Of a stretch of DNA of 24,000 nucleotides, positions 1 to 24,000 are shown one piece after another. Origin of the DNA: Clostridium cavendishii DSM 21758. GTDB lineage: Bacteria; Bacillota; Clostridia; Clostridiales; Clostridiaceae. A model generated the notes under the pieces. It did no database searches. It was not told the origin of the DNA and was given only the letters and a program-made list of their open reading frames with translations. The stretch is taken from assembly GCF_900141845.1 (NCBI RefSeq), contig NZ_FQZB01000006.1:131165-155164 (forward strand), read 5' to 3'. Both the position numbers and the translations under genes were made by a program. Every line of letters starts with the position of its first letter. The stretch's first letter is position 1.

Positions 1-141
1 ATAGAACTCATATTTTTCTGATAAATCATCAAATTTATAATAACTTTCTTCTCTAATATAAAAATTATTTTTTTTAAAAACACTTATTACCTTTTCTCGT
101 GGAATATTCTTAGGAATCATATACAAATTTAATTGACACAT
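1..141 (-). CDS. hypothetical protein, N-terminal 47 codons only (gene runs off the left edge)
   Basis: ATG at 139-141 (minus) with GAGAGG at 151-156, 9 nt upstream. I translated all 47 codons to position 1 without a stop (MCQLNLYMIPKNIPREKVISVFKKNNFYIREESYYKFDDLSEKYEFY...). It is absent from the ORF track because it has no in-window stop. No motif recognised. Confidence 0.35.
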   Translation of the reverse strand, partial: MCQLNLYMIPKNIPREKVISVFKKNNFYIREESYYKFDDLSEKYEFY

Positions 142-186
142 AAAATATTACCTCTCTTTAGTTTGTTTCAAATTATTCATTTTTAA

Positions 187-756: not shown

Positions 757-772
757 ATTAATATTTTTTCCT

Positions 773-4939: not shown

Positions 4940-5725
4940 TCACTTTAAAGTAACATTTAAAATTCTATGCTTACTTACAAAACCAGACTTTTCTAGTGTA
5001 TTTTTAGACGCTATATTTTTTACATTGCAACAAGCCATTGGCTTTAAATTATTCCTATAACAATGTTCCTTAAGCTGGGTAACAATATAGATCCCGACAC
5101 CTTTTTTACGATATTCTTCTGTGACAATCATTCCAATATCACCATATTGATCATTTGACTTAAATATTCTAAACTCACCTATTCCTAACAGAATGTCACA
5201 ACTATATAGTACGAATAGTTGATTGTTTTCTACTAAATCTTCATAATAACCGTCAAATGCAGGGTCACATTTTATTTTTATAATTCCTATATCGTTTTTG
5301 TTAGCCAATCTGAAAGATATATCCTTAAAATTACTTAATTCATATTTAGTATTTTTATTATCACTAAAAAGATATTGATCTATTGATATACTCTTGTGAT
5401 AATCAAGACATAAAGCTAGAAATTCTTTCTCTTTAGTAGAAACAGCAGCATTTTCCACAATATCACTTTCAATAATATATTCAAAAATCTGGGGTGCATG
5501 TACAAAATATTGTGACAAAATATAGAATTGTACTAAAGTCTTATGGGAATCTACAAAAAAATGACCTGCTTTTTCTCCATCATAAATAATTACATAACAC
5601 TGAGCGTTACCTATCACTACATTTTCCCAATAACCATCTATTGGAGATTCTAAAGTTTTAATATACTCTTTAGCTAAAATAAATCTTTCTTCTGCTGATG
5701 TTACTTTTTCTAATTGTATCATCAA
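4940..5725 (-). CDS. GNAT-family N-acetyltransferase (261 aa; GNAT fold in the C-terminal half)
   Basis: The C-terminal half carries the acetyl-CoA motif A (R-x-x-G-x-G: EEYRKKGVGIYIV), followed by ...NVKNIASKNTLEKSGF, the usual GNAT C-terminal helix/strand pattern. Confidence 0.75.
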   Translation of the reverse strand: MMIQLEKVTSAEERFILAKEYIKTLESPIDGYWENVVIGNAQCYVIIYDGEKAGHFFVDSHKTLVQFYILSQYFVHAPQIFEYIIESDIVENAAVSTKEKEFLALCLDYHKSISIDQYLFSDNKNTKYELSNFKDISFRLANKNDIGIIKIKCDPAFDGYYEDLVENNQLFVLYSCDILLGIGEFRIFKSNDQYGDIGMIVTEEYRKKGVGIYIVTQLKEHCYRNNLKPMACCNVKNIASKNTLEKSGFVSKHRILNVTLK

Positions 5726-5855: not shown

Positions 5856-6764
5856 TTATTTTAATGTATTAATAATATCAATTTTTTTAGCAAACCACTC
5901 ACATATTTCTTTATTTTGATTACTACTTGAAAGAAAATCAGATAATGGCTTTTCAAAATAATAAATATTTACACTTGTATCTTCAACACATCCATCAAAT
6001 ATATTTTCATTTTCCTTTATCTTATTTGTAATGTTCCCAAATTCACTATTGTTTTTTGCAATAACAAGACTAACAACCACCTTAGGTATTTTACCCTCAC
6101 CTCTAAACTCAAATCCAACGATAACTTCTGAATATCCATCTCCAATAATATTTTCACTCCACATAACATACTGTTCATTTAGACATATTTGTTTAAGTCT
6201 TTCATAATCACGTTCATAAGGCTTTCCAAAACACTCTGTTAATTTTGGCTTAACCATATCTAAACACTCATCCATTTTTGCTATTGTAGCATTAATATTA
6301 CTAAGAACTATTAAATCTTGAAAATTAAAATCTCCTGCACTTGACATACCTTCACCCCTTAAAAATTCTAAACATTCTTCTATAATCTTATTTTCTTTAT
6401 ATTGATTCAAAAATGCATATACATCACTCCACCTATATTGTTCAAAGTTAATATTTGAAATATCCTTTTTATCATAATACTTTGTACAATATCTTAAATA
6501 CACATTCTTATTATCATTTACTTTTATTTCATTTAAAACTTTTGAATATCGTCCTAACTGTCGTTCTCCCTCTGAAGAATTAACCTTATTCTCAATAAAA
6601 CAAATGCTTTCTTTATTCTTAACAACTATATCTATAATACAATCCATATCTCCTTGAAGATAATATTTTTCTTGAGAATCAATAGAAAATCCCGTACCCT
6701 CTATTAAAAGAAACTTATTAACAAACTTATCTAATAGTTTATTATCTTGCTCCAACGTTCCCAC
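5856..6764 (-). CDS. PD-(D/E)xK nuclease-family protein (302 aa as tracked; 5' end probably damaged)
   Basis: Core motif D...ExK followed by QLxRY: GDMDCIIDIVVKNKESICFIENKVNSSEGERQLGRY. The tracked start is GTG (6762-6764). The same frame stays open for 30 more codons upstream (to the stop at 6855-6857) with no ATG/GTG/TTG. See the finding on the 5' frameshift. Confidence 0.65.
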   Translation of the reverse strand: MGTLEQDNKLLDKFVNKFLLIEGTGFSIDSQEKYYLQGDMDCIIDIVVKNKESICFIENKVNSSEGERQLGRYSKVLNEIKVNDNKNVYLRYCTKYYDKKDISNINFEQYRWSDVYAFLNQYKENKIIEECLEFLRGEGMSSAGDFNFQDLIVLSNINATIAKMDECLDMVKPKLTECFGKPYERDYERLKQICLNEQYVMWSENIIGDGYSEVIVGFEFRGEGKIPKVVVSLVIAKNNSEFGNITNKIKENENIFDGCVEDTSVNIYYFEKPLSDFLSSSNQNKEICEWFAKKIDIINTLK

Positions 6765-7155: not shown

Positions 7156-7539
7156 CTATCTAGTCTTCAAAGCATCAACAACCAAAATATCAGCAGAAAC
7201 CCACTTTTGATCATCTAACTTACCAAAATCAATCCACTTAGCATCATTATGAGCATTCAAGCTTAAAGTTCCACCAGAAATCTCACAAATAAAACAATGC
7301 ATAGTAAGATGAAAATTTGGATAATCATAATCAACAGTAGTTAAAAACTCTAATCCATTAATATCAAGTTCTAGCTCCTCCTTAATCTCACGAACAAGAG
7401 CCTCTTCCCTAGACTCACCACTCTCAACTTTTCCACCTGGAAACTCCCACATATTAACGAAATCCCCATAGCCTCTTCTAGTAATAAATATCTTATCATC
7501 CTTCTTTAAAATAGCTGCAACTACCTCTATAGTCTTCAT
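7156..7539 (-). CDS. Nudix hydrolase, MutT-like nucleoside triphosphate pyrophosphohydrolase (127 aa)
   Basis: Complete Nudix box GX5EX7REUXEEXGU: GGKVESGESREEALVREIKEELEL. Size and the N-terminal beta-strand pattern (IEVVAAILKKDDKIFITRR) are typical of MutT-like enzymes. SD AGAGG lies 7 nt upstream of the ATG. Confidence 0.9.
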   Translation of the reverse strand: MKTIEVVAAILKKDDKIFITRRGYGDFVNMWEFPGGKVESGESREEALVREIKEELELDINGLEFLTTVDYDYPNFHLTMHCFICEISGGTLSLNAHNDAKWIDFGKLDDQKWVSADILVVDALKTR

Positions 7540-7750: not shown

Positions 7751-7990
7751 TTAAAAATACTTCTCTAAATCCTCTACTTTTTCTAAATCAAAAATATCTC
7801 CGCCTATTACATCTAATTTATCTGCTGGAAGACTTGAAATCTTTTTCTTATATTCTTCTGGAAGTTTTTCAAACTTCTTTATCAATTGTTTTAATAAGAG
7901 ATCTGCCTTCCATTTAGTCTCACCTATAGAAACTCCTTCTTTTCTTCCCTCTGCTTTATAATGCATTTTTCTTATTTCATCTATTGTCAT
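7751..7990 (-). CDS. stand-alone Rpn C-terminal domain protein (79 aa), RpnS-like
   Basis: Aligns along its whole length with the last 80 aa of the neighbouring Rpn protein (…EGRKEGVSIGET-KWKADLLLKQLIKKFEKLPEEYKKKI…GGDIFDLEKVEDLEKYF vs …EGKEEGISIGEANGETKGKADLLLKQLIRRFKKLPDGYREKI…AGDIFELEKVEDLEQYF). Has its own ATG with AGGTG 8 nt upstream (7999-8003). Confidence 0.65.
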   Translation of the reverse strand: MTIDEIRKMHYKAEGRKEGVSIGETKWKADLLLKQLIKKFEKLPEEYKKKISSLPADKLDVIGGDIFDLEKVEDLEKYF

Positions 7991-8140: not shown

Positions 8141-8383
8141 TTAAAAATACTGCTCTAAATCTTCTACCTTTTCTAATTCAAAAATATCTCCAGCTATAAC
8201 CTCTATTTGCTCTAATTTAAGATTTAAAATCTTTTCTCTGTATCCATCTGGAAGCTTTTTAAATCTTCTTATTAATTGCTTTAACAACAAGTCAGCTTTT
8301 CCCTTAGTTTCTCCATTGGCCTCACCTATGGAAATTCCTTCTTCTTTACCTTCTTCATATATCATTCTTCCAACATCAGTCAT
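8141..8383 (-). CDS. possible internally initiated small protein (80 aa) in frame within the Rpn gene, RpnS-like
   Basis: In-frame ATG at 8381-8383 (MTDVGRMIYEEGKEEG…) preceded by a perfect AAGGAGG (reverse complement of 8392-8398) with an 8-nt spacer. The product would be colinear with the stand-alone 79-aa ORF at 7751-7990, whose own start codon aligns with this internal Met. Confidence 0.4.
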   Translation of the reverse strand: MTDVGRMIYEEGKEEGISIGEANGETKGKADLLLKQLIRRFKKLPDGYREKILNLKLEQIEVIAGDIFELEKVEDLEQYF

Positions 8384-9025
8384 GCTAACAACCTCCTTAA
8401 ATCTCTTCTTAGCTTTTTCATCTCCAAACTTGTCAAATAAAGCATATAAAAGAGTTAAACATTTAGTCTTCTCTTCTTCATTTTTAATATCCTTAGCTAT
8501 CTCTATACTATCTAATGTAATATCACTTTTACTCTTTTCACTTTCCATAAGTGGAATGAAACTTAATGTCATAATATCTTGTTCGGTTAGCTCTTCTCCA
8601 TTATCTACTTTAGTTTTAATTCTTTCATAATTTTCATCCCCATTTAGCTTACTCATATAAAAGCATTCTAATGTATAATTTATCGAACCACAATTAATAT
8701 TTGTAACTACGTCCTTTATATCTGATGAATACACTACTACGGTTCTTATATTTTTTCTACTCATATAATGAAGAGATGCATCATAATACAAAAATCTTGC
8801 TATATCATCCCTTTTATCAGTAGTTTGAAACTCAAAATGCAAATAATCATCCGTCTCTGTATAAAATAGATAATCCATAGCACTAGTCTTAATATCTATA
8901 TTCTTAATTTCCGTTTGTGCTGGCTTTTTTAGCTTAACATCTAAGTTAAAAAACTCTGATGCACTATCCTTAAAAATCTCCATGGCTTTCTTGAATACAG
9001 CATCTTCAACCTTATTATAATCCAT
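8141..9025 (-). CDS. Rpn/YhgA-family recombination-promoting nuclease / putative transposase (PD-(D/E)xK), 294 aa
   Basis: The N-terminal half has the YhgA/Rpn pattern (…DYLFYTETDDYLHFEFQTTDKRDDIARFLYYDASLHYMSRKNIRTVVVYSS…). The C-terminal G-rich repeat plus helical tail ends in EDLEQYF. I prefer the ATG at 9023-9025 (MDYNKVEDAVF…), which has GGAAGGAG 7 nt upstream. The tracked 315-aa form starts at a TTG (9086-9088) with no comparable SD. Confidence 0.8.
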   Translation of the reverse strand: MDYNKVEDAVFKKAMEIFKDSASEFFNLDVKLKKPAQTEIKNIDIKTSAMDYLFYTETDDYLHFEFQTTDKRDDIARFLYYDASLHYMSRKNIRTVVVYSSDIKDVVTNINCGSINYTLECFYMSKLNGDENYERIKTKVDNGEELTEQDIMTLSFIPLMESEKSKSDITLDSIEIAKDIKNEEEKTKCLTLLYALFDKFGDEKAKKRFKEVVSMTDVGRMIYEEGKEEGISIGEANGETKGKADLLLKQLIRRFKKLPDGYREKILNLKLEQIEVIAGDIFELEKVEDLEQYF

Positions 9026-9227
9026 TTTAAAACTCCTTCCAAGTAGGCTTTTATTAATATATTTGCCAATTTGGGAGGAGTTATGCAAATGTATATTCTG
9101 TTTTGAAAATTAATTTAACTCGTTGTGCTAGTTAAATTATTAACTTCATTCTAACCTATAACTTCAAATCATCTTCTAATATTAACCACCTCATCAGTAT
9201 CTCCAAAATAGATTACCAGTATAATAT

Positions 9228-9266
9228 AAAGACTCCTTCCTACGAAATCCGTAAGAAGGAGTCTTT
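9228..9266 (-). terminator. copy A of the conserved two-tier hairpin; terminator candidate for the ATPase-deaminase operon
   Basis: 12-bp perfect outer stem (9228-9239 aaagactccttc / 9255-9266 gaaggagtcttt). Inner TACG/CGTA stem (9241-9244 / 9250-9253) with loop aaatc. Starts 11 nt after the deaminase stop (9278-9280) and is followed on the minus strand by the U-rich UAUAUUAUAC. Confidence 0.55.
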
Positions 9267-9277
9267 TAAATATATTC

Positions 9278-11938
9278 TTATTTTGAATACTTATTAAGCA
9301 CTTCGCATAAGTATTGATAATATTGAGTGTTAGAAAGCTTATTATCTATAAACGAAGTTTCCATACCTGACTTTCTTAACTTTTCAATCCACTCTAAAGC
9401 CTTTTCTTTACCAAACCCTTTATTAAGCATTCCATAATACATGTATGCATATTCATTACTGATATTTGTGTTAAAAATTAAAGGATTATCTGAATTGATA
9501 TTTATAAGTACATTATTTTCTTCAAAGCCTTCAACATTATTTATATTGTAAGCTTGGCTGTCAAATACAGCATCTAATTCTCCTATACTAGTATTCGAAC
9601 TTGGATTTATTTCAACTACTATTCCTTTAGTTGAAAGTTCATTTACCAATTCTCTTTTTACTTCATTAATTATTTCCTTTTGAATGTTATTTGATTGTAC
9701 ATAAATAGGCTCACTAATCTTATCTAAATAGCATTTACAATTATATGCATGAGTTATTTTTTCTGCATTCCAAATAGAACTTTGATGTTTTTCTATTTTT
9801 ACGCAAAGAACCTCATTATTATTTTCAATCAAGTTTTCAGCTGATTTTTTATAGTTTTCATTTTTTTGAAATTTATTAAATCTTAATTGGTAAGCTTCAT
9901 ATAACATAGGAATATTTATTCCATTCATGTTTTTAAATATATCCTTTGCCAATGAATATATTTCTCTTTCTAAAAACAGATTAACTGCCACATTTTTAGA
10001 AATAGAATTTGTGTATACTCCCCATACCCATAACAAGTTATCAAGATATTCTCCTCTAGGAAGTATTACTACCGTATTTGCATTTACCCACTTATTTGGA
10101 TCAATTCCTAGAGCTATAGCATGCCCTATTCTATCACCAGAATGAAACTTACAAAAGGTTACAACTTCATGTATTCTTCTTAACCCTGATAATATATGTC
10201 TAAACTCTTCACCGGCGTGGAAGGTATAGCATAGACTTTTATATCTTACACTACTTCCATCTTTTCCTTGCTTAATTAGTGAATCAATAGAACTATCTCT
10301 AGCCCTTTTGTATATAGGTGCAAATACCTGTACCGGAGTGTTATTTTCAAGATTTGCAGCATCTATTCCTAATATAAAGTATGAGAGATATGGTGATTCA
10401 TTTCTTAGATTCAATAAATTTTGAATCAAAACATCATAATCTTCTTGAATCTTTTTAAAAGAAATTTCACTTGGGTTACTTTTACCATCAAAAGCAAGCC
10501 AACATTTTTCATCTCCATCTTCATCTTTTCTTTTAATTAAATGAAATACTAATCCGATCCTAGGAAAATCAACATTACTATCTTCATTTGTAGAATATTC
10601 ATCATCTATAACCTTTTTATAAGCTGAAAGTATACTTAGTAAATTTTTTTTAAAATCACTTTCATTTTTAGATATACTAAACCTTAATTCTAATCTTTTT
10701 AAATACTCATTTTGAAATAAAGTTCTAAACAATAGTTCATAATATGCTTCATCGCTTAATCCACTGCTGCCCAAAAATTTAGTTGCTCTATCAAAAAAGT
10801 TTGAGAAATTATCCAATCCTTTTATAGTTGAACTTTGAACCACTTGTTGATAAAATTCATTTTTAATCCTAATATATTTTAATAAAATTTTAAATAAAAA
10901 TGGTTCTTTTGTTTCTTCATATTTTGTAAAAGCCTTCATTAAAAATACATTCTCACCATAAGTATTGATTCCTTTGCATTCAGTAAATATCCTAAACACA
11001 ATATCTTCTTTTTTATCATTATCTTTTATCTGATATTGTTTGTTTAAGTCTTCCAACAATTTAAGCAATTCAATATTAGTAATCTCTTTTTCTTGTCCAC
11101 TCACTACTAATAATATATTTTTAATATTTTTTAACTCACCTTTGCAATACTCCTCTATTGTTATATCTGAGTCATTTTGATATTTCATATAAAACATAAC
11201 TATATTCCTATATATAGCTGCTAATATGAAATATCTGTGAGGATTTTCTTTGAATTCTCCTTCTCCATTTTTAAAGTACTTAACTTTTTTAATATTTTTC
11301 GCTTTTATCCTTTGATTCATAAGCTGTTCCCAAAGCAATATAAAGTTAAACCCAGAATTAGCATGTAAATGATTTTCAGCTACACCTTTCACAAGTAAAT
11401 CATCTAACTGAGAATCTGCCAAGCTTATATCTGAATAATAGCCATCCAATTCTCTAAAATCAACAATGTTATTTTTAATCATATATAATATTGTAAATAA
11501 ATCCATAGAAATTATTGAATTTATATTACGAAACACTTCAATTTTCTTATACTCTTCATAAGGCCCTATAAATTCATCATCCAAATTATTTTTCCAATAC
11601 TTGTACACTATCTTTCCATTTCTGTGAGATATCAAAGTAGTAGTAAATTTTCTTAAATTTTCATAATAGCATTCATAAACTTTGTCTTCATTAATTTCTC
11701 TTTCTCTTAAAAATGGATAATACTTATTAAGAATTAAATAAACCTCATCCAAGTTTTTTATTTCAGATGTTTCACTTATTTTATAAACTAATTCTTCCAA
11801 TAAAAAACTTTTATTTTTCTTCTCACTAGGATCAGCTATTTTTAAAAATGTATCTTCTTCAAAAAAGAACAAATCTTTAAATGGTATCAATGCAACATTT
11901 AAAATTTCTCTAATTTTAGTATTCATTTGCATCTGCAT
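9278..11938 (-). CDS. rdrB: divergent adenosine-deaminase-fold protein (886 aa), RdrB-like (RADAR deaminase)
   Basis: All adenosine-deaminase signature motifs occur in the canonical order. NH190LH192 (nt 11363-11371). G524IDAAN. H574AGE577 (nt 10208-10219). DRIGH606 (nt 10121-10123). E776INPSSN782. S816D817NP (D817 at nt 9488-9490). The protein is far larger than a housekeeping ADA and sits directly behind a ~940-aa ATPase gene, overlapping it. Three in-frame ATGs (11938, 11932, 11926); GAGGA spacing favours 11932. Confidence 0.8.
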   Translation of the reverse strand: MQMQMNTKIREILNVALIPFKDLFFFEEDTFLKIADPSEKKNKSFLLEELVYKISETSEIKNLDEVYLILNKYYPFLREREINEDKVYECYYENLRKFTTTLISHRNGKIVYKYWKNNLDDEFIGPYEEYKKIEVFRNINSIISMDLFTILYMIKNNIVDFRELDGYYSDISLADSQLDDLLVKGVAENHLHANSGFNFILLWEQLMNQRIKAKNIKKVKYFKNGEGEFKENPHRYFILAAIYRNIVMFYMKYQNDSDITIEEYCKGELKNIKNILLVVSGQEKEITNIELLKLLEDLNKQYQIKDNDKKEDIVFRIFTECKGINTYGENVFLMKAFTKYEETKEPFLFKILLKYIRIKNEFYQQVVQSSTIKGLDNFSNFFDRATKFLGSSGLSDEAYYELLFRTLFQNEYLKRLELRFSISKNESDFKKNLLSILSAYKKVIDDEYSTNEDSNVDFPRIGLVFHLIKRKDEDGDEKCWLAFDGKSNPSEISFKKIQEDYDVLIQNLLNLRNESPYLSYFILGIDAANLENNTPVQVFAPIYKRARDSSIDSLIKQGKDGSSVRYKSLCYTFHAGEEFRHILSGLRRIHEVVTFCKFHSGDRIGHAIALGIDPNKWVNANTVVILPRGEYLDNLLWVWGVYTNSISKNVAVNLFLEREIYSLAKDIFKNMNGINIPMLYEAYQLRFNKFQKNENYKKSAENLIENNNEVLCVKIEKHQSSIWNAEKITHAYNCKCYLDKISEPIYVQSNNIQKEIINEVKRELVNELSTKGIVVEINPSSNTSIGELDAVFDSQAYNINNVEGFEENNVLININSDNPLIFNTNISNEYAYMYYGMLNKGFGKEKALEWIEKLRKSGMETSFIDNKLSNTQYYQYLCEVLNKYSK

Positions 11939-14735
11939 TGTCCTCTTCTTCAGGTAATTCTAAATCAAATTCTTTATAGAATAATTCTTCCTCAGCTTTT
12001 GCTTTCTTAAATGCTTCCTCTAAAGCTTTTTTCATTGAATTCTTTTTTTGCTCTAAATTTATAATCATTTCTGTTTCAGCTGAATTAACATTTCTATATT
12101 TAATATACTCTTGGATAATAAAATTAAATACAGGTTCTTCTATATCTAAATAAGCTTCTTTCTGTAATGTTTCAAGTAAATTTCTCGCTTCAATAACACC
12201 ATACCAAGCTGTACTCTTATAACCAAGATAACGAAGTTTTTCAACAATTTTTATGTAATCACCAATTGAAACTTTCTCTTTTTCACTTCCATCTTCAACT
12301 ATTATACTTTTAATAAATTCATGTGTTTTTCTATATACTGTTTTAGAATTATATTCAACATTATAAAATTTTCTAAATTCTTCTTTGAAATTTTCATCAT
12401 TTATATCTATAATATTAATCATCCCAACAACTACATCTATTTTTTTGTGAACTTCATCTCTTAACAGTTCATCAATCTTTGTTTTATTATTTTTTACATT
12501 TTGATTATTATCTAATTTCTTTAAAATTTTTATTATAGATTTAGATTCATTATCTAAGTTCTTCAAGTCTTGATCATTATTAACCACTATAATATTGTTT
12601 TTATACTTTTCCTTATTTATATAATTATAAAATAATTGTTTTTTATAGTTTTCATAAACTTTATATGCTTTATTATTTTTTTCATCTTTTTTTTCTGGGT
12701 TTTGCAATAATTGAATCTGATTTTCTGTATATTCTATATTCATCTCATAATCTTTACCTTTTAAAAAACTATATTGATTCAATATTTTTTCAATCTTTTC
12801 ATTCTCAATAGGCTCTCTTGATACTGAATCTAGAAATTCTATTATATGTTTATACTTTTCTCTATCTAAATACCAATTTTTAATCATGTCTCCATTATCA
12901 TAATCTAAAATTAAATTACATAAAATCAAATAAATTTGACGTTTTTCTTTAACACTTAAATCTTTAACTTTTTCATCATCTATTTTAATAATATTTTTTA
13001 GCTTTTCCATGAAAAATAAGGCAAACTTAAAATCAGTATTAAAAATTATCTGATCAATCCAATCATTAATTATTGGATTTTTATCTTTCATAAAATCTTT
13101 AAATTTTTCATTATTAAAGTTTACTTTATCAACATCTACATTTAAAATATTTTCACCTATATTAAATTTATATAAATAGAAAAAATATTTTTTAGCCTCT
13201 TCATATCCTACAACATTTGCTTTTGGCAATAACTCTTTAGTTGTTTGTAATAATATAAAGAAAGTTATATATCTATTTATATACTTTCTCTTTTCTTCTT
13301 TATTATTATCTTCTTTATCATCTTTCTTTCCTTTATCTTTATCAGAATTTAATTCATTTTTAAAACTGTTACTTAGCTTCTTTGTAAAAAGTCTTTTAAA
13401 ATCTATTATTGTATTTTCCTCATTTGATCCCCATTTGATATGCTTTTCATAAATCTTACTTTGATCTTTTATTAAGTCACTTGAAGAATATATAATTGTA
13501 TCTATTAACGATTTAATAAATACAAATCTTTTTTCATCATCTACAAATTCCTCTTTATCATATTTACTTAAATAATAAAATACATTTATTAAACCTCTTG
13601 GTGTTTTATCAAAAATTACATATGGTATTTCCGAGAAAATCTCGTCACTTTTTTTATTTTTCCTCTTAAATATATTGTCTTCACCCATCAAATCATCTAG
13701 TTTTTTATGCAAATATATCGTTTCATTTCCACTTTTATCAACTTGAAATGAAAAATTAGGTATACTCTTAAAATTCCATTTTATAACATTATGCCTAAAT
13801 GCAGGTGGTAACACCTTTTTTAAATATTCATGTGCTAAATATTTTTTTCTACTAATTAAATTATGTTTACTATCAAATAATTCATTATTTTCTACAAGGC
13901 TTGTTGTTGCTAACTTTTCATTTTCTAATAATGCTAAAGTTATAGATTCACTTAATATTTCATAATCTCCAGATAAAAAACATATTATATTAGGATGGCA
14001 AGTATAAGCCATTACTGCATCTATCAATTCTCTACATTTATTTGTTTTTAAATCGATATCATCTATTGTTATAATAATTAATGGCTCTTCACCTTTATTT
14101 AAGTTTCTTTTTACACTAATTAATTCTTCTACGAAAGAATGTAATTTATTGTTAAATTCATAATCAGGTGCTAAAATATAAGAATATTTCTCCTTATAAG
14201 TTTCCATATCACTATAATTTTTCATTATTAAATTACGATATTCAGCATCTTTATAACAATAATATTCTAGAACTTCATTATAACTTCTACTTAACTCATT
14301 ACTTTCTTTAAACCTACATTGATTAAAAAAATCTGAGAACTCTTTATTATCAATTTCATTTTTTTCTATTTCATTTTCTAGAGCTTGCATTTCTTTTTTC
14401 AAAACACCTAATATTGCTCCTAGTATCTTTGTACTATCTCCATATATATCTGGTTCTATTATTGGAAGAACGATATCTTTATTTCCTTCAGCTTCTAAAC
14501 TATTTAAAATAGTATACATAGTTGAAGTTTTTCCTGTTCCCCTTTCGCCAAATAATCCAATAGTATTATTGTATTGCTTCTTACTACTATTATCTCTTTT
14601 TCTATTTATTAACTTTGCTTGTCCTCTTATTTCTTCAATTTGATTGATTATATTATCATATGTAGGAACTATTAATTTAACTTGTACATCACTTAAAGCT
14701 CTGGCGCCTATAAAAACTCCATTTTTATTTTTCAT
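11916..14735 (-). CDS. rdrA: large P-loop NTPase (939 aa), RdrA-like (RADAR ATPase)
   Basis: Walker A GLFGERGTGK69TS (nt 14523-14549) and Walker B PLIIITIDD225-226ID (nt 14052-14063), both in the first 230 aa. About 700 further residues are K/N/E/I-rich with no recognisable motif. Size, position immediately upstream of the deaminase and the 23-nt overlap match RdrA. The family call rests on architecture, not on sequence identity I can verify. Confidence 0.7.
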   Translation of the reverse strand: MKNKNGVFIGARALSDVQVKLIVPTYDNIINQIEEIRGQAKLINRKRDNSSKKQYNNTIGLFGERGTGKTSTMYTILNSLEAEGNKDIVLPIIEPDIYGDSTKILGAILGVLKKEMQALENEIEKNEIDNKEFSDFFNQCRFKESNELSRSYNEVLEYYCYKDAEYRNLIMKNYSDMETYKEKYSYILAPDYEFNNKLHSFVEELISVKRNLNKGEEPLIIITIDDIDLKTNKCRELIDAVMAYTCHPNIICFLSGDYEILSESITLALLENEKLATTSLVENNELFDSKHNLISRKKYLAHEYLKKVLPPAFRHNVIKWNFKSIPNFSFQVDKSGNETIYLHKKLDDLMGEDNIFKRKNKKSDEIFSEIPYVIFDKTPRGLINVFYYLSKYDKEEFVDDEKRFVFIKSLIDTIIYSSSDLIKDQSKIYEKHIKWGSNEENTIIDFKRLFTKKLSNSFKNELNSDKDKGKKDDKEDNNKEEKRKYINRYITFFILLQTTKELLPKANVVGYEEAKKYFFYLYKFNIGENILNVDVDKVNFNNEKFKDFMKDKNPIINDWIDQIIFNTDFKFALFFMEKLKNIIKIDDEKVKDLSVKEKRQIYLILCNLILDYDNGDMIKNWYLDREKYKHIIEFLDSVSREPIENEKIEKILNQYSFLKGKDYEMNIEYTENQIQLLQNPEKKDEKNNKAYKVYENYKKQLFYNYINKEKYKNNIIVVNNDQDLKNLDNESKSIIKILKKLDNNQNVKNNKTKIDELLRDEVHKKIDVVVGMINIIDINDENFKEEFRKFYNVEYNSKTVYRKTHEFIKSIIVEDGSEKEKVSIGDYIKIVEKLRYLGYKSTAWYGVIEARNLLETLQKEAYLDIEEPVFNFIIQEYIKYRNVNSAETEMIINLEQKKNSMKKALEEAFKKAKAEEELFYKEFDLELPEEEDNADANEY

Positions 14736-14776
14736 TTTTTCTTTCCTTCCAATTTTTAAAATTTGTTATCTTATAA

Positions 14777-15262
14777 TTATTTAGTTTTTTCATTTTTTTG
14801 TTCTATATGTTTATTCCAATTATCAACGTCAGCTTTAGAAATATTTTTTATTATCTGAAGCACTTCATCATCATAATTCTTTTTCTCACTAGATTCGCTA
14901 CATTTAATTAATATTTCCATCAATCCATCACCAATATTTTCAACTGCTTGTCTATATCTTAGCCAAGATAATTTATAATTTTTTAAATATGATACTGAAA
15001 TTAAAATATTTATTAATACTGCTATAGCTGAGTTTATAATCTTTGTATTATCATTAAAAACATTCACTAATGGTATTATTGCGGTAAGAATTATTATACT
15101 AATATTAAATAAATTATACCTAGCTCTCCCCCCGTCAGCTTTATTTATATACCATTCCAACTTATAAAATGCTATATCGGATGTCATTTTTGTAATATAT
15201 TCTTTATTAGTTAAATCATCTAATATATTCTTATAAAAATTCAGCTCTGATGATTGCTTCAT
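14777..15262 (-). CDS. small 2-TM membrane protein (161 aa), SLATT/DUF4231-like; RADAR accessory (RdrC/RdrD-type) candidate
   Basis: Two adjacent hydrophobic helices (YNLFNISIIILTAIIPLVNVF and IINSAIAVLINILISVSYL, nt about 14981-15118) are followed by SWLRYRQAVENI, the W-x-RYR-x-x-E pattern I associate with SLATT/DUF4231. AAGGAG lies 9 nt upstream of the ATG. First gene of the operon, 41 nt before the ATPase start. Confidence 0.6.
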   Translation of the reverse strand: MKQSSELNFYKNILDDLTNKEYITKMTSDIAFYKLEWYINKADGGRARYNLFNISIIILTAIIPLVNVFNDNTKIINSAIAVLINILISVSYLKNYKLSWLRYRQAVENIGDGLMEILIKCSESSEKKNYDDEVLQIIKNISKADVDNWNKHIEQKNEKTK

Positions 15263-15794
15263 TATTTTTATCTCCTTTTTTATCTAGTAATAATTTATAA
15301 ATATAATATAAAAACTTCTTTTATTTACTTATTATTACACTATTATTTTATCACATATTTTCTCTTTTTCTACAATTTTAGATATTCATATACAACATTA
15401 TTACTTTATAGGCTCTTATGAATTCTTAAAATATAATAGAATAATTATATCTACTGGATCTGTAAAGCACTTAATCTAAAAAACATATTAATCTATTTTG
15501 AATATCTTTATATCTCAACATATTTTATTAATATTTTTAGAGTATTTTTCAATAAATTTAGATAAGCTTTTAAAATATAAAATTTTATAAAAACAATATT
15601 GTCCTGTTATATGAATTTCTGTCATATAATCATATAGATGATTCTGTTATTGGTGAAATTCTAATAATCTTTATAGTATACACTGCTGTCTAATTATTAG
15701 TAAATTTTACAATATGATTGTAATGATATATACTTTTATTATAATCAAACTTATAATTTTATTAATACTATAATTGTTGAAAGGAGTATTACTC
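15263..15794. promoter_or_regulatory. 0.5-kb divergent intergenic/promoter region between the SLATT-ATPase-deaminase operon (-) and the 333-aa orphan gene (+)
   Basis: No ORF of note on either strand. One plus-strand candidate is TTGTAA (15718-15723), a 16-nt spacer, then TATAAT (15740-15745), about 50 nt before the TTG start at 15795. Several other TATAAT strings occur here, so individual promoter calls are weak. I could not pick a convincing minus-strand promoter for the operon. Confidence 0.35.
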
Positions 15795-16796
15795 TTGAAA
15801 AATCAAATACAAACACTACCAATAATTAAGTTAAGAAATATATCATATCCAGAAAGGTCATTAACTTTATTTATATCAGTATTTTCAAATTTTCACTTAA
15901 GTGAAATCTTTTCTCTAAGAGATACATATCCAAATACTAATATAAATATTTTCATAAATGAAAATAAACTTATGTTTTTATATAAAAATTCTATTGAATT
16001 TTTTTCATCTCTTAATACTCAAAAGATTAATATTATTTTCTCTAATAGCGTTAAATCGGACATGCTTTTTATTGATGAAAGAATTAGTATTCCTTTAGTA
16101 TATATTAATAAAACAATACATCTAAATACGGGTAAAGTTATAGAAACAACTTTATCGGATATCTCTACATCAAGCTGTAATACATTAAAAGGACTTTTTA
16201 CACACTCTGATAACTCATATATAAGTATTGTAAATAATTTAACAGTATTAGAAATTAACTCTATTATAGATTACATAAATTATTCTGATATTCAGTTAAC
16301 CTCTAATGATATTCTTCAATTTAGTAATTTTGACAATTCAACTATTAATCTTATTTCTGTTTTATCAAACATTGAGGAACCTTTAAATTATAATGATGTA
16401 GGTTTACTTCTTACCGAAGGTGATAAAAAACCAGGTGCCTATAAAAAATATGGTGAGAATCAATCTAAAACTGGAGAACTTCTTGAGCTAGTTTCTATTA
16501 ATTCATCTGTTCCCAAAACTGTGTCTTTAACTCCATTAGGAGAAGCTCTTCTTAATGTTAATAAAGAAGTTTTTGATAATATTATTTTCTTTGAAATTTT
16601 GAAATGTAACCTTCTTAAACACTTAATTTCATTATGTAAGTTTAATTGCCAAGTTAATGTTAAAGAAATATGTGTACCTACTATTTCAGAGAAAACTTAT
16701 TTACGTAGAAGATCTAATATCAAATATCTTGTTAATCTTTTAAAAGCTAAAAATATTGAATCTTTAAACATTCTTTTAGATAAATTATCTTTTTAA
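15795..16796 (+). CDS. hypothetical protein (333 aa from the preferred TTG; 340 aa in the track), possible C-terminal winged-helix region
   Basis: The only plus-strand gene. AAAGGAG (15780-15786) sits inside the tracked 5' end, 8 nt upstream of an in-frame TTG at 15795-15797, so I move the start there. The segment KKPGAYKKYGENQSKTGELLELVSINSSVPKTVSLTPLGEALL looks like a helix-turn-helix plus wing; this is a weak, pattern-only call. No catalytic motif seen. Confidence 0.55.
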   Translation: MKNQIQTLPIIKLRNISYPERSLTLFISVFSNFHLSEIFSLRDTYPNTNINIFINENKLMFLYKNSIEFFSSLNTQKINIIFSNSVKSDMLFIDERISIPLVYINKTIHLNTGKVIETTLSDISTSSCNTLKGLFTHSDNSYISIVNNLTVLEINSIIDYINYSDIQLTSNDILQFSNFDNSTINLISVLSNIEEPLNYNDVGLLLTEGDKKPGAYKKYGENQSKTGELLELVSINSSVPKTVSLTPLGEALLNVNKEVFDNIIFFEILKCNLLKHLISLCKFNCQVNVKEICVPTISEKTYLRRRSNIKYLVNLLKAKNIESLNILLDKLSF

Positions 16797-16799
16797 GTT

Positions 16800-16836
16800 A
16801 AAAAAATGAGCAACGTAAATGTTGCTCATTTTTTTA
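16800..16836. terminator. bidirectional rho-independent terminator between convergent genes
   Basis: Perfect 9-bp GC-containing stem (16806-14 atgagcaac / 16821-29 gttgctcat) with loop gtaaat. Flanked by A6-7 (16800-16805) and T6 (16830-16835), which extend the stem and give a U-tract in both directions. Lies between the stops at 16794-96 (+) and 16834-36 (-). Confidence 0.75.
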
Positions 16837-19800
16837 TTTATTCTTTTGCATTTCCATCCAAAAAGCATTATCTTGCATATAGATAACATCTTCAACATTT
16901 CCTAGCTTTACTAAACTCTTATGTTGTTCTAATGACTTTATCTTAGTAAACAGCTCATCTTCCTGTGTCTTATTCGTTGTATTATATATAAACTTTATGT
17001 CTTTTATTGAAAGGTCTGATACCTTGTGTACTATCCAAGTTAGGATATAGTTTGCATACTCATTATCTCCTGTAGAAAAATGGCTTAGTAGCTGTGTTGA
17101 TAGTATTGTTCCTACTCCAAACATTCTACCTTCTTTTAAGATCTTCTTTAAACTTTGGAAATTTTCACACAAGAAGTTATCAGCCTCATCAACTAATATC
17201 ATCTTACTCAACTGTCTATACTTGTCATCAAGTTTACTTTCTCCTAATACTTTCATTTGTGAATAGAAGATATCTAGTATTATACCTACAACTAAGTTTT
17301 GAATATCCGAATCACTGTTTGAAAGGTTTATTACTGTAACTCCATCAATCATATCATATAATGATTTAGAGTTATCCACATCTGGATCAAATATTTCAAA
17401 ATCATATAACTTATCTAAACATGTAAATAGTTTATCTTGCTTTACATCTTCATCATCAAAAAACTCTCTGCATACTTCTGCTATAGTTGGTGGTTTTTTA
17501 GTCCATGTATTTGGATCATTCTTTTTAATTCCACGTTTATCATATGCATTCATTATAAGTTCTTTTAATTTGTTCTCTTGGACTACACCTAAACCAAAAG
17601 CTGTAGTCATTGTATGTTTCAAAGCATTAGCAGTGTATAATGGTAATAAGTTTTTCTCCTTATTTCCCTGAACTAATTCTAGTGGATTAAATGGAAGATG
17701 ATATGTCTCATATACCTTAGCATTTGTAGCCTCAACAAATTCATTATCTATATAATCACCTTTATAATCAAATATTAACAATCCAATCTTTTTACCATCA
17801 ATATTTTGATAAGTATTTTTATTTAATTGATATATAAGAGATTTAGTAAACTGAGTTTTACCAGTTCCCATAGTTCCAATTATACCTGTATTAGTATGAT
17901 TATTTTGTATTGAATCAGTTGGATTCCAAATCACCTCACAATCTCTATGAATATCTCTTCCAAAAAGAACTGATAATGGCCCTTTAGTTTCTGCAACTGC
18001 CCCAGTATCTTCACCACTATTTCCATCATATATCGCACTTGATTCTTCATCATTTGAATTATCATTAATAGACGTTTCTTCTTTCATTTCACAAACTCTA
18101 CCTTCATATAGGTTATATAATAATGTATCACTCTTTATATCGCTCTTATCTAATATAAAATTGTTCTTTATTTCTTCAACACTTCTTAAAATATTTCTAT
18201 ATCCTGATGCTTCTGGGAATACTAATTCTAAAATCTTATTTCCCTTATCATATTCTTCCTGATTAAAAGCATCTCCTAATTCATCAACACCAATTGAAAC
18301 AAGTTCACCATTCTTTTCAAATGATATATCACTTTTAAAAGTAAATATAGCACCTCTTCCAATTATCTCATCTAAACTATTAGATATTCTATAATCATCA
18401 TTTAATAACTTTGCTCTTACATCAGTTTCTATAATAGAATCCCAATTTTGTTCATCCCACACATTATAAAGCTTTAATTTCTCGATGCTTACAAGAACTA
18501 ATTTAATTAGAAAATCTCTAAATATCTTTGCTTGTAATTTATCATTGATTTCTTTGCTTATATTCCTTTCTATATGATTTCTTGTTTTGTAAGCTTGTAG
18601 CTTCGCCTTTTTAGTTACATCCCCTTTAATTTGCCCAATCTTAACTTCAATTGGATAATAGTGAACATCTATATTACCATCAGCACAACATTCTATTCCT
18701 ACTAATAACAAGTCATCTGAATAAGCACCATCACCACTTAAATTTTTTACTGAGAACAAACCTTCTTTACTACTTAAACCACAACCTTTGGATACTCTTA
18801 GAATTTCCTCTAATGAAATTGGGACCCATACAATTTTTTTATTGTAAAAATATGACAAACTTAACTTTATAGTAGATACGATACTAAGCTTCTCTCTATC
18901 TTCATATCCATTACAAGAAATAATTTTTAATAACCAATCTCCATTTATCGCATTAAAACAGTTTATTACTTTAGTTATTGACTCTTCATCATTTCCTAAT
19001 AATACATTTTTATTTTCTAAGAAACTCTTTATTACTTCCTTATATTGCTTAGTCTTTTTAGTTACTGTAATAGAATCATATCCAGAAGATGGTGTATATT
19101 GATCACTATAATGTATAATAAGTAAATCTTTTTCTTCAATAGTATCTTTAAAAAATTGTAATCCAACCATTGGATTTATGAATGTTACCCAATTTGCAGA
19201 TTCATAAATACGATTTAATTGATCTTCTTTATATTCATCTATAGCGGTAGTTTTGCACCTACTATCATCAAATGGTGATTCATTTTCAGCAGAACAAATT
19301 AATGCATTCATTTTAGTAGCCATTTTTAGAAGTGTATTTTTAGAATGAATAAATTTAGTTCCATACCCTGTTCTATATGATTTAGATATTTCTTTAGAAG
19401 GAACTGATGATAATAATCCACCAAGTGATACACCCGTGTTTATATTATCCATTATCGTATTTTTATTAGAGAACTCATGCTCCATTTCGTAGAATGTTAT
19501 ATGACTATATTCATACTTAGTAGTATCATAATTTTTTATATAACAGCTAAGCTTTGAATTTACGATATCAAAAATATCATCCTTAGAATACTTCTTATTG
19601 CTAGATTTTATTGCAAATGATAAACCTAGCTTTTCCTCTGCATCCTCAACATGCACATAATTTTGAAGTTCCTCAAATACACTATCACCAGACTTATTGT
19701 ATATATTAATAATAAGTGGTCTTAACTTCTCAATTCCCTTACTCTTTAATCCTTCAGTATAATAGTCTATTATACCTTGTAAAATATCTTTAGAGTATCC

Positions 19801-22107
19801 TGTATTAATTAAATTAATCTTTAATGGCAGTTCTGTAGATAAAAATAAAGTCTTAAAGTGTTTTATAAATTCATTTATTTTTTCTCTAACTAACTTCTTA
19901 ACAAATCCTCTGTTTCTTTCATTAAAATCAATATCATTTATTACATATTGCTTCCACTCTTTAGAATGATTTTGTTCTAAAGATCTATAAAGCTTTTCTC
20001 CACCAAAAGATATATAAGGAATGAGGTTTGTTGAATCTAATTTATTAGCAATTTCTTTTTCTAAATCTTCCTCATCAGAAATCACTTTATCCTTTAACTC
20101 TTCTGTGATCATAAGTTGATATGACACATTAATAGGGTGTAATGGTGTTAGTAAGATCTGTCTAGCTGAACCCATTACTTCTATTGTCCCAACTCTTAGT
20201 AAATCAACAATTTCATCACACATATTGTCATTGTACTCAATCTTTTCCAATTTGGAATAGTATATATCAATATACGTTTTTAATCTTTCTTCTAAATCTT
20301 CATCAATATAAGCTAAGCTTGGTAAAACAACATTTGATTTATAGTATTCAAAAATTCTGTTATAAGCTTCTTTTAACTTATCACAAACTTTTAACTCTCT
20401 AATCTTTAGTTTTCCATTTGATTCTACGAAGGCCATTCCTCCATTTTTCAAGATAAATTCTTCTCTATCAAGATTAACTTTAAATTCATCATAAGCAAAA
20501 TTAACTTCACCATCTTTACTAATTTTGTTATCTAAAAATTTATAGCTCCCCTTATCTCTTAATTTATTTATCCAAATTTGTCTTCCACTAATACGTGTAA
20601 TCTTAGAATTGCTTCCAACAATATTAAAAGGAATTATTAGATTATCTAGCCTAAGATTAAATCTATATGCATCTTCATTTTCATCTATTTTTATCTTATT
20701 TTTCACCTTAAACTTATTAATAGCGTTAATAGGTACATTCTCATCTTGGAAATTCAAAGTTATTGATGATGTATCTTCACCATATGGATTTAACGTAAAC
20801 TCTGAATCCGATGTCATGAGCGTAATGTTTTGCTCTTTTTTAGTTATCTTTATAGTGTAATTAGTTCTTACAACTGTATCCTCAAATATAGCTTTATCCA
20901 TTGGAATAACGACGATCTTAAACTCATAATTACTCTTTCCTGAATAAGATACCTTACAAAAACTAACTTCGTCTTCCAATTCTTCTAATATAACATTAAT
21001 CTTCCTATTATTTATCTTAGCTGAAACATTCTGCCCAAAATCACATTTAACACCTTTACCTTTCATAGCTTCTAACTTATTATCAAAAACAAAAGATAAT
21101 TTGATAGTATCAACTTTATCTTTATTAAAAATAATTATGTTTCTCTTTCTTCTTTGTGCCTTAGTTGTACCTTCTTCCTTCTCCCAATAATCTTCCTTAG
21201 AGATATTTTCTATAGAACTACATTCATAGATGATATCCTTTTCCTCATAATTATCCATAGACTGCCTAACAACTTTATATTCTTCATTAAACCAGGCTTT
21301 ATTAGCTAATTTCTTTTTTCCTGTTTCATCTAAAAACTTTTCTAAATTACTCTCTATATCTCCACCATACTTATGGATATTGTCTATCTTTAAGTACGCT
21401 TGCGAGTTCTCATTTAACCTACTAATAGCTTCCTTCTCATCATTAATTGTATCTAGCTTAAGATCTCTAAATAATTCAAATTCTTTAAATTCAGAATCAT
21501 CTATATAGCCCTTATTTATTATAGATACTATATCGCTATACTGTAATATTGATTGACCTTCATCAGAATCTTCTCGCTCCCTTCTTCTTAGGTCAAACTT
21601 TAATACATATTTTGCACTTAATGCAAGATTACTTTTATCTATAAGATAATTTATATCATTTATTAATGTCTTAGAATGGAATGGCATACCTTCCTTTTGA
21701 AAGTTTATAACTCCATCTGTGATAGTATCTTTATTACTTGTATGAATGAATAATATTGCTGAATTCTTAAATTGCGACTTCATGTTGGTACTAACTTCAT
21801 TTCTTAATGTAGCTAAGAAATCTGGATTAACACCATCAATTGTAGCTGCAACAATTAATATAATATCATTAAACTTAATTGAATATGTTGTATATTCCTC
21901 ATACTTCTCATTAACTTGATATTTAAATAGTTTACTGTCAGAGACGTTTTTTATTTCTTCATATAAGTGCTTTACATCTGACTCTTTTTCAAATTGAATT
22001 TCATATCTATCACCATAATAAATTCTTGTCCCATCAAAATATTCAACAACCTTTTTAGCTAAAAAATTATAAAATTGATCTAACATATAATGCATCCCCA
22101 CTATCAC
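16834..22107 (-). CDS. 1757-aa multidomain protein: central PD-(D/E)xK-like nuclease motif plus C-terminal FtsK/HerA-type P-loop ATPase; DptH (DndH)-like by architecture
   Basis: Walker A GIIGTMGTGKTQ (nt 17851-17886) and Walker B MILVDEADNF (nt 17173-17202) lie in the last ~380 aa. Nuclease-like motif is SDDLLLVGIE…DGNIDVHYYPIEVKIG (nt 18640-18717). It is the last, largest gene of a coupled three-gene operon. The tracked start is GTG (22105-07); the ATG at 22084-86 has GGGGA 8 nt upstream and may be the real start. The CDS is near-certain; the DptH assignment is only moderately supported. Confidence 0.55.
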   Translation of the reverse strand: MIVGMHYMLDQFYNFLAKKVVEYFDGTRIYYGDRYEIQFEKESDVKHLYEEIKNVSDSKLFKYQVNEKYEEYTTYSIKFNDIILIVAATIDGVNPDFLATLRNEVSTNMKSQFKNSAILFIHTSNKDTITDGVINFQKEGMPFHSKTLINDINYLIDKSNLALSAKYVLKFDLRRREREDSDEGQSILQYSDIVSIINKGYIDDSEFKEFELFRDLKLDTINDEKEAISRLNENSQAYLKIDNIHKYGGDIESNLEKFLDETGKKKLANKAWFNEEYKVVRQSMDNYEEKDIIYECSSIENISKEDYWEKEEGTTKAQRRKRNIIIFNKDKVDTIKLSFVFDNKLEAMKGKGVKCDFGQNVSAKINNRKINVILEELEDEVSFCKVSYSGKSNYEFKIVVIPMDKAIFEDTVVRTNYTIKITKKEQNITLMTSDSEFTLNPYGEDTSSITLNFQDENVPINAINKFKVKNKIKIDENEDAYRFNLRLDNLIIPFNIVGSNSKITRISGRQIWINKLRDKGSYKFLDNKISKDGEVNFAYDEFKVNLDREEFILKNGGMAFVESNGKLKIRELKVCDKLKEAYNRIFEYYKSNVVLPSLAYIDEDLEERLKTYIDIYYSKLEKIEYNDNMCDEIVDLLRVGTIEVMGSARQILLTPLHPINVSYQLMITEELKDKVISDEEDLEKEIANKLDSTNLIPYISFGGEKLYRSLEQNHSKEWKQYVINDIDFNERNRGFVKKLVREKINEFIKHFKTLFLSTELPLKINLINTGYSKDILQGIIDYYTEGLKSKGIEKLRPLIINIYNKSGDSVFEELQNYVHVEDAEEKLGLSFAIKSSNKKYSKDDIFDIVNSKLSCYIKNYDTTKYEYSHITFYEMEHEFSNKNTIMDNINTGVSLGGLLSSVPSKEISKSYRTGYGTKFIHSKNTLLKMATKMNALICSAENESPFDDSRCKTTAIDEYKEDQLNRIYESANWVTFINPMVGLQFFKDTIEEKDLLIIHYSDQYTPSSGYDSITVTKKTKQYKEVIKSFLENKNVLLGNDEESITKVINCFNAINGDWLLKIISCNGYEDREKLSIVSTIKLSLSYFYNKKIVWVPISLEEILRVSKGCGLSSKEGLFSVKNLSGDGAYSDDLLLVGIECCADGNIDVHYYPIEVKIGQIKGDVTKKAKLQAYKTRNHIERNISKEINDKLQAKIFRDFLIKLVLVSIEKLKLYNVWDEQNWDSIIETDVRAKLLNDDYRISNSLDEIIGRGAIFTFKSDISFEKNGELVSIGVDELGDAFNQEEYDKGNKILELVFPEASGYRNILRSVEEIKNNFILDKSDIKSDTLLYNLYEGRVCEMKEETSINDNSNDEESSAIYDGNSGEDTGAVAETKGPLSVLFGRDIHRDCEVIWNPTDSIQNNHTNTGIIGTMGTGKTQFTKSLIYQLNKNTYQNIDGKKIGLLIFDYKGDYIDNEFVEATNAKVYETYHLPFNPLELVQGNKEKNLLPLYTANALKHTMTTAFGLGVVQENKLKELIMNAYDKRGIKKNDPNTWTKKPPTIAEVCREFFDDEDVKQDKLFTCLDKLYDFEIFDPDVDNSKSLYDMIDGVTVINLSNSDSDIQNLVVGIILDIFYSQMKVLGESKLDDKYRQLSKMILVDEADNFLCENFQSLKKILKEGRMFGVGTILSTQLLSHFSTGDNEYANYILTWIVHKVSDLSIKDIKFIYNTTNKTQEDELFTKIKSLEQHKSLVKLGNVEDVIYMQDNAFWMEMQKNK

Positions 22108-23479: not shown

Positions 23480-24000
23480 TATTTAATCACCTCAAATTTA
23501 TACTTACCAAACTTTTTAGTGAACTTAAATGTTTCTACCCCATCAGCTATGTTTTCTTTAATATAGATCTCTTTATTTTGCTCTCCATAATTCTTTATCT
23601 TTTCAATGGAATCAATAAAGCTAATAAAATCACTTCTTTCCTTTTTCTTTGGAATATACCCTTGTCTTACTTTTGTTAATAATTTATATAGCTTGTAATC
23701 AAGCTTAATAGTTAATCTATCACCCTTATTCTTTATAACAAAATCTAATATTATATTTGAAACAAACTTATCTAGCCTTCCCGTTAAAACTTTATTTTCT
23801 AATTCATCTTCTTCACATTCTAAATATAACTTTTCATATGTCTTAAACCTATTTTGCGATTTCCCCATATTTATTCTTATATTACTATCTGAAGATTTAA
23901 CATTGTCCAATTTATATATAGCTTCACTTACCAAATCATATAAATCTCCTAATTCTGTAATATTATTAGTATTAAAGACATACAAGTATTTAATAAATTC
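23479..24000 (-). CDS. C-terminal part (at least 173 codons) of the first visible gene of the operon; possibly DptF-like; truncated by the window edge
   Basis: The tracked start (23983-85) is a TTG, and the frame stays open to position 24000 (…EFIKY-L-YVFNT…), so the gene most likely begins beyond the window. No motif in the visible part. Confidence 0.35.
   Translation of the reverse strand, partial: EFIKYLYVFNTNNITELGDLYDLVSEAIYKLDNVKSSDSNIRINMGKSQNRFKTYEKLYLECEEDELENKVLTGRLDKFVSNIILDFVIKNKGDRLTIKLDYKLYKLLTKVRQGYIPKKKERSDFISFIDSIEKIKNYGEQNKEIYIKENIADGVETFKFTKKFGKYKFEVIK

Follow-up and report, generated by a model that had tools for sequence, protein, structure and literature searches.

In a 24,000-nucleotide (nt) stretch of Clostridium cavendishii DSM 21758 DNA, hereafter the window, we identified with high confidence a SLATT-associated RADAR anti-phage system. 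The assignment follows from the homology of two adjacent gene products to RdrA and RdrB, from their intact predicted active sites, the conserved order of the two genes, their position in a defence island and an entry for the locus in a published catalogue. A hypothetical protein of C. cavendishii DSM 21758 that is 100% identical to the gene 2 product identified the source of the DNA, which an earlier note on this stretch had taken to be a probably clostridial genome; the same note had read the three genes as a RADAR-type operon, a reading borne out by the RdrB profile and fold matches of gene 3, by the RdrA family-profile and fold matches of gene 2 and by the listing of the pair in that catalogue.

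The operon consists of three minus-strand open reading frames (ORFs) that are read in one direction, gene 1 to gene 2 to gene 3. Gene 1 (14777..15262; 161 amino acids (aa)) encodes a SLATT-domain (DUF4231) protein with two predicted transmembrane helices, the putative RdrD-type accessory of SLATT-associated RADAR; gene 2 (11916..14735; 939 aa) encodes RdrA, a P-loop ATPase of the AAA+/KAP-like type whose C-terminal lobe is alpha-helical; and gene 3 (9278..11938; 886 aa from the first ATG) encodes RdrB, a divergent adenosine deaminase. The ORF listing of the window reproduced exactly what the earlier note had described, namely three co-directional genes at these positions, with 41 nt separating genes 1 and 2 (14736–14776) and 23 nt shared by genes 2 and 3 (11916–11938). 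Its Shine–Dalgarno (SD) site for each gene was recovered as well, with purine-rich SD-like sequences 5′ of all three starts (AAGGAG, GGAAGGAAAG and GAAGAGGA). The length of 886 aa that it gave for gene 3 holds for the first ATG, but the start is ambiguous: 884 aa (IMG, 11932) and 882 aa (NCBI, 11926) are also possible, and the IMG start has the best SD spacing (about 9 nt).

The RdrA–RdrB pair

Sequence profiles and the predicted fold both identify gene 3 as RdrB. The NCBIfam RdrB model matched it at E = 2e-59 (residues 186–861, model positions 149–845 of 850), and the PADLOC RdrB models at 4e-36 and 2e-33. Searched as a single sequence (phmmer), gene 3 matched chain 8fnw_A, a solved E. coli RdrB, at 1.5e-18; a family profile of 37 homologues matched the same chain at 8.5e-48, with the best ordinary adenosine deaminase at only 3e-6. 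The adenosine-deaminase motif set claimed for gene 3 is present in full (HLH 190–192, HAGE 574–577, GHA 605–607 and SDNP 816–819), and H190, H192, H574, E577, H606 and D817 are invariant in the 37 homologues. Pairwise alignment placed the histidines and E577 of gene 3 on H152/H154/H498/H530 and E501 of E. coli RdrB, which are the zinc-binding histidine tetrad and the catalytic glutamate of that enzyme (Duncan-Lowey et al., PMC9994260). The predicted catalytic set of gene 3 is therefore intact as read from the alignment, with H190, H192, H574 and H606 as the putative zinc-binding residues and E577 as the putative catalytic one. Gene 3 has both the size of an RdrB (large, about 750–950 aa) and its histidine tetrad and glutamate.

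The AlphaFold (AF2) model of gene 3, with a predicted local distance difference test (pLDDT) of 84 and a predicted template modelling score (pTM) of 0.87, contains an adenosine deaminase (ADA)/AMP-deaminase TIM barrel with the active site, as had been anticipated for an 886-aa protein carrying the listed residues. The eight best Foldseek matches in the PDB were all RdrB (E 4e-24 to 2e-20, TM-score 0.57–0.68, about 890 columns); beyond RdrB, there were weaker matches to an ordinary ADA (5e-5) and to the CRISPR deaminase Cad1 (1.6e-4). The PADLOC CARF_ADA model also matched gene 3, at 6e-6.

Gene 2 is a very divergent RdrA, again by family profile and predicted fold. The Walker A (GERGTGKTS, residues 63–71) and Walker B (IIITIDDID, 220–228) motifs are present, and the predicted ATPase residues K69 of Walker A and D225/D226 of Walker B are intact. 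The NCBIfam RdrA model matched gene 2 at 4e-12. A family profile of 37 homologues, run against the PDB, returned RdrA as its three best matches (8hr7_A and 8fnt_B from E. coli and 8fnu_A from S. suis) at E of about 2e-7 over residues 59–325, which cover the ATPase domain and a conserved motif behind it. For the AF2 model of gene 2 (pLDDT 78, pTM 0.73), RdrA chains made up all of the 20 best Foldseek matches (E 4e-10 to 6e-8, with about 600 columns aligned), and the next ATPases, ORC and ClpX, appeared from 2e-2. The comparison of predicted structures with the published RdrA and RdrB models, which the earlier note had proposed, thus placed both proteins in their families. Like an RdrA, gene 2 falls within about 800–1100 aa and combines an N-terminal AAA+ domain, a helical C-terminal lobe and RdrA homology.

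The pairing of the two genes is conserved. A scan of one genome per species yielded 36 loci with a gene 2 relative, in Paenibacillus, Clostridium, Oceanirhabdus, Saccharibacillus and many Lachnospiraceae, and at every one of them (36/36) a gene 3 relative lies directly 3′ on the same strand. The same arrangement was found in 12 of 12 further loci, from metagenomes or genomes, to which close homologues had led, giving 48 loci in all. Related loci thus have rdrA followed by rdrB without exception, and the C. cavendishii locus is part of a divergent Firmicutes RADAR clade of Clostridium, Paenibacillus and Lachnospiraceae.

By analogy with the systems of E. coli, C. rodentium and S. suis (PMC9994260), we propose that heptameric RdrA rings would dock on a dodecameric RdrB shell and that the complex would poison the nucleotide pool, stopping phage replication and leading to abortive infection. 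By the same analogy, RdrA ATPase activity would be needed, both active sites would be required, and the variable C-terminal lobe of RdrA would be the suspected sensor.

Several points weigh against the RADAR assignment or this mechanism. The evidence for the locus and its clade consists of gene sequences and predicted folds. Gene 2 scores 45 bits against a 600-bit cutoff and gene 3 scores 202 bits against an 800-bit cutoff for the NCBIfam RdrA and RdrB equivalogs (NF041743 and NF041744), cutoffs that are practical and not biological definitions. The PADLOC RdrA models did not match gene 2 in a scan up to E = 10, which returned only PifA, the best match at 2e-8, and mad8. The fold match between gene 2 and RdrA has a TM-score of about 0.3 over about 600 of 939 residues at 13–14% identity, and homology of the modelled C-terminal lobe to RdrA is loosely supported; the low TM-score and identity fit the published divergence of the family, in which known RdrAs share 22–25% identity in the ATPase domain only and the S. 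suis and E. coli proteins less than 20% (PMC9994260). The SLATT gene occurs in only two lineages of the clade (C. cavendishii and the metagenomic lineage L043/L044) among about 48 loci. Finally, the mechanism of RADAR is disputed, with RNA editing proposed in 2020 (Gao et al., as summarised in PMC7699616) and mononucleotide deamination in 2023.

That RADAR acts by adenosine-to-inosine (A-to-I) editing of RNA, and not by deaminating free ATP/dATP, remains a minority rival that we consider unlikely. Editing was the first activity reported for the C. rodentium system, as summarised in PMC7699616, and RdrA rings in an ‘RNA-loading state’ have been deposited in the PDB (8hra, 8hrb). However, the predicted barrel and active site of gene 3 are of the ADA/AMP-deaminase type, its nearest folds outside RdrB are mononucleotide and nucleoside deaminases and Cad1, not ADAR-type enzymes, and more than 99% of adenosines were unedited during effective defence, in which ATP-to-ITP conversion was robust (Duncan-Lowey et al., PMC9994260).

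A second alternative is a new ATPase–deaminase pairing, in which an RdrB-like deaminase has joined a KAP/PifA-type P-loop NTPase other than RdrA. The earlier note had kept such a pairing as its fallback, and PADLOC alone would trigger it: the PADLOC check that the note had suggested succeeded for RdrB (4e-36) but PADLOC v2 gave no RdrA match for the locus, and no PADLOC model matched gene 1. The best PADLOC match to PifA, the Pfam domain KAP_NTPase (PF07693) in some gene 2 homologues and the empty phmmer search of the PDB with gene 2 as a single sequence all speak for it. Nevertheless, the NCBIfam RdrA match, the three best profile matches in the PDB and the 20 best Foldseek matches are to RdrA, the last preceding the next ATPase by six orders of magnitude; one of the three profile matches was itself deposited as a ‘KAP NTPase domain-containing protein’, known RdrAs are no closer to one another than the identities given above, and the published catalogue lists gene 2 as RdrA (PMC9994260). 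We therefore regard a new pairing as very unlikely and rejected an unrelated KAP NTPase as the partner, since RdrA is the sole family indicated by the profile and fold searches. That gene 3 is a housekeeping purine-salvage ADA lying by chance beside an ATPase and a membrane-protein gene is scarcely conceivable: the Pfam A_deaminase domain does match its C-terminus, but the protein has 886 aa where such enzymes have about 330, its match to RdrB exceeds that to an ordinary ADA by 40 orders of magnitude and its gene lies within a Dnd/Dpt defence island, and the idea is refuted by the invariant linkage to the ATPase gene in all related loci together with the profile and fold matches.

The SLATT protein and accessory genes of the clade

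Gene 1, which had been described as a SLATT-like membrane protein, scored above the cutoffs of both Pfam DUF4231 (E = 5e-10, 40 bits against 24.7) and NCBIfam SLATT_1 (2.9e-14, 53 bits against 41). The two transmembrane helices and the W-x-RYR motif previously noted in it correspond to predicted adjacent hydrophobic helices at about residues 50–70 and 73–93 and to WLRYR at 100–104. SLATT domains have generally been proposed to act as membrane effectors or modulators. On that general basis, the two-helix protein, which would be co-transcribed with the RdrA–RdrB pair as an accessory component, may add a membrane-permeabilising or growth-arrest output or may modulate the system.

RADAR has been divided into standalone, Csx27-associated (rdrC) and SLATT-associated (rdrD) subtypes (Gao et al. 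2020, as summarised in PMC7699616). Gene 1 is a probable RdrD-type accessory, and the support is positional: it is operonic with rdrA, and L043/L044 carries a syntenic orthologue of 164 aa (37% full-length identity, E = 8e-31) that ends 5 nt 5′ of an RdrA homologue 42% identical to gene 2. The SLATT protein had no tblastn match in the 36 genome loci, a word-indexed homologue search with it returned only itself, and a metagenome scan with a three-sequence SLATT alignment found no relative; the link between SLATT and RADAR in this clade therefore rests on one other lineage. Its presence in two lineages of about 48 loci indicates that the SLATT gene is dispensable for the core system. Upstream ORFs at 10 related loci were mixed (GNAT, Nudix, uracil-DNA glycosylase (UDG), a weak Csx27-like match, or none), so that there is no general third gene. 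In two Lachnospiraceae, 204-aa genes directly 5′ of the RdrA homologue (L017 6360..6974 and L021 1485..2099) matched Csx27 weakly, at E = 1e-3 and 1e-2, below the cutoff. The accessory repertoire of the clade (SLATT and weakly Csx27-like proteins) is that of published RADAR.

A bolder model, which we hold to be improbable, makes the SLATT protein a second effector gated by RADAR activation, so that nucleotide poisoning would be combined with membrane permeabilisation, while neighbouring sanitising or repair genes would buffer leaky ITP/dITP. The genes meant are the MutT-like Nudix genes of the window and two relatives, the Ham1-like ITPase gene of the metagenomic locus L048 and the family-4 UDG genes of L025 and L027, all described below. 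In the literature covered, we found no report of SLATT gating or of ITP/dITP buffering for RADAR. A natural SLATT–RdrA–RdrB operon of a Gram-positive anaerobe could serve for studying the contribution of the SLATT accessory.

Known systems and the published catalogue

The E. coli P0304799.3 and Citrobacter rodentium DBS100 RADAR systems (8fnt, 8fnv, 8fnw, 8hr7–8hrc) share with the C. cavendishii locus the order of the two-gene core, an RdrA whose N-terminal ATPase carries Walker A/B and whose C-terminal lobe is helical, an RdrB of about 800–900 aa with an HxH...HxGE...H...D active site and a full-length fold match (TM-score about 0.6–0.68), and a location in a defence island. They differ in that identity to the C. 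cavendishii proteins is only 13–16% in structural alignments, RdrB is about 90 residues longer here, the C-terminal lobe of RdrA has no detectable sequence similarity to theirs, and the operon described here has an additional upstream SLATT gene and an AT-rich Gram-positive anaerobic host. The S. suis SS993 system (RdrA 8fnu) is also from Firmicutes and was shown to defend after transfer into E. coli. Its RdrA is as distant from E. coli RdrA (<20% identity) as gene 2 is, and it is among the profile and Foldseek matches of gene 2; its sequence match to the gene 2 family is, however, confined to the Walker A region (residues 62–125), and the system belongs to a branch separate from the Clostridium/Paenibacillus/Lachnospiraceae clade. 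The SLATT (rdrD) and Csx27 (rdrC) subtypes pair a small membrane-protein gene with rdrAB, as does the C. cavendishii operon with its SLATT_1/DUF4231 protein; the rdrC subtype finds a counterpart in the two Lachnospiraceae relatives, whose weakly matching Csx27-like gene takes the same upstream position. Cad1, the CARF-adenosine deaminase of type III CRISPR, is likewise a defence enzyme with an ADA fold, makes ITP from ATP and resembles gene 3 in structure, more weakly than RdrB does. It differs in being activated by cyclic oligoadenylate through its CARF domain, in lacking an RdrA partner, in its much smaller size and in the oligomer that it forms.

The 270 RADAR systems in Table S1 of Duncan-Lowey et al. 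2023 (Cell 186:987, PMC9994260) include one of C. cavendishii DSM 21758 (EJ30DRAFT_scaffold00004.4, 140442-145899, minus strand; RdrA 939 aa, RdrB 884 aa). This row spans 5458 nt, exactly as window positions 9278..14735 do, and the core of our finding is therefore already catalogued. Relatives that we recovered independently are in the same table: Paenibacillus uliginis, P. gorillae and the Lachnospiraceae bacteria 3-1 and A4. The comment ‘Has a SLATT domain’ is used 27 times there and is blank for C. cavendishii (PMC9994260). RADAR has been known as a type of system since 2020 and its structure and chemistry since 2023, and this locus was in the 2023 catalogue; what we add is small, namely the SLATT gene that Table S1 does not flag, the recurrent position beside dptH (see below) and the failure of the PADLOC and NCBI thresholds.

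NCBI names the products of genes 2 and 3 ‘hypothetical protein’ because they score below the NCBIfam equivalog cutoffs and have no PADLOC RdrA match. We recovered roughly 170 homologues, and not one is named RdrA or RdrB. The locus is a test case in this respect, as the whole Clostridium/Paenibacillus/Lachnospiraceae branch of RADAR evades the PADLOC RdrA models and NCBI naming.

Operon flanks and defence-island neighbours

The strong hairpin reported downstream of the operon is a minus-strand stem-loop at 9228..9266, directly after the RdrB stop codon, with a 17-bp stem, a folding free energy of -26.8 kcal/mol and z = -5.5; none of 200 shuffled sequences folded equally well. It is likely the operon terminator; a terminator scan did not flag it because its tail is not a clean T-run. 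Upstream, the 0.5-kb non-coding region of the earlier note measures 511 nt (15263..15773, GC about 0.20) and contains no ORF of at least 60 aa in the ORF listing; an Rfam search of the window, this region included, found no family. Promoter-like hexamers number 70 here compared with 61 ± 9 in shuffled sequence, the level expected by chance in AT-rich DNA, and no promoter can therefore be named. The region is presumably a promoter region shared with the divergent gene on its other side, a plus-strand ORF of 340 aa with a TTG start (15774..16796) in DNA of 20% GC. This ORF had no match in Pfam, NCBIfam, PADLOC or PHROG, but its 296 relatives at E ≤ 1e-3 mark it as a real gene. The best relative aligns its residues 1–333 with residues 8–340 of the ORF, which suggests that the true start lies about 7 codons inward, and the C-terminal ~180 aa form a domain common to many ~225-aa proteins without assigned function.

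The RADAR operon sits in a defence island. Directly 5′ of it, on the minus strand (16834..23985), are the genes for DptH (1757 aa; PADLOC DndH match, E = 0) and DptG (470 aa) and the C-terminal end of DptF. DptF/G/H are the restriction half of a DNA-phosphorothioation (Dnd) system, the dnd modification genes of which lie outside this window. In Clostridium sp. LY3-2 and C. perfringens (L039, L040), the RdrA–RdrB pair is located between dptH and dndA/dndE/dndD, and in LY3-2 the space beside dptH also holds a KAP NTPase and a GmrSD-like gene. The position beside dptH is therefore a recurrent RADAR insertion site in clostridia, and the gap looks like a recurrent hotspot for defence cargo.

On the other side of the operon, all on the minus strand, lie an Rpn-family protein (PD-(D/E)XK recombination-promoting nuclease/transposase-like) with a C-terminal DUF4351 (8141..9088) and, downstream of it, a 79-aa ORF consisting of DUF4351 only (7751..7990), possibly the remnant of a second copy. 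These are followed by a MutT-like Nudix hydrolase gene (7156..7539, 127 aa), a PD-(D/E)XK nuclease-like protein gene (5856..6764) whose product resembles the PADLOC candidate PDC-S26 (3e-9), a two-domain GNAT acetyltransferase gene (4940..5725) and a gene for a 610-aa HNH endonuclease-domain protein (2227..4059). The Nudix hydrolase matched the PADLOC candidate PDC-S07 over its full length at 1.5e-47; it could be a chance neighbour in the island or a nucleotide-pool sanitiser tied to a system that produces ITP/dITP.

Genes of related function were seen at other loci of the clade. In Paenibacillus sp. H1-7, 57 nt lie between the end of a related Nudix gene (L007 6471..6905) and the RdrA homologue downstream of it, and another such gene lies 3 kb upstream in Oceanirhabdus (L001 about 3596..3964). 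In two Lachnospiraceae metagenome-assembled genomes, family-4 UDG genes that are 86% identical to each other (L025 6360..6914 and L027 8091..8651) abut the pair, one 5′ of rdrA and the other 3′ of rdrB. At L048, a single metagenomic instance, the genes directly 5′ of RdrA–RdrB (96..1673) encode a 78-aa C-terminal fragment of another adenosine deaminase, a 182-aa Ham1-like ITP/dITP pyrophosphatase and a 263-aa SIR2_2 protein; that a RADAR locus adjoins the gene of an enzyme destroying the RADAR product merits a second look.

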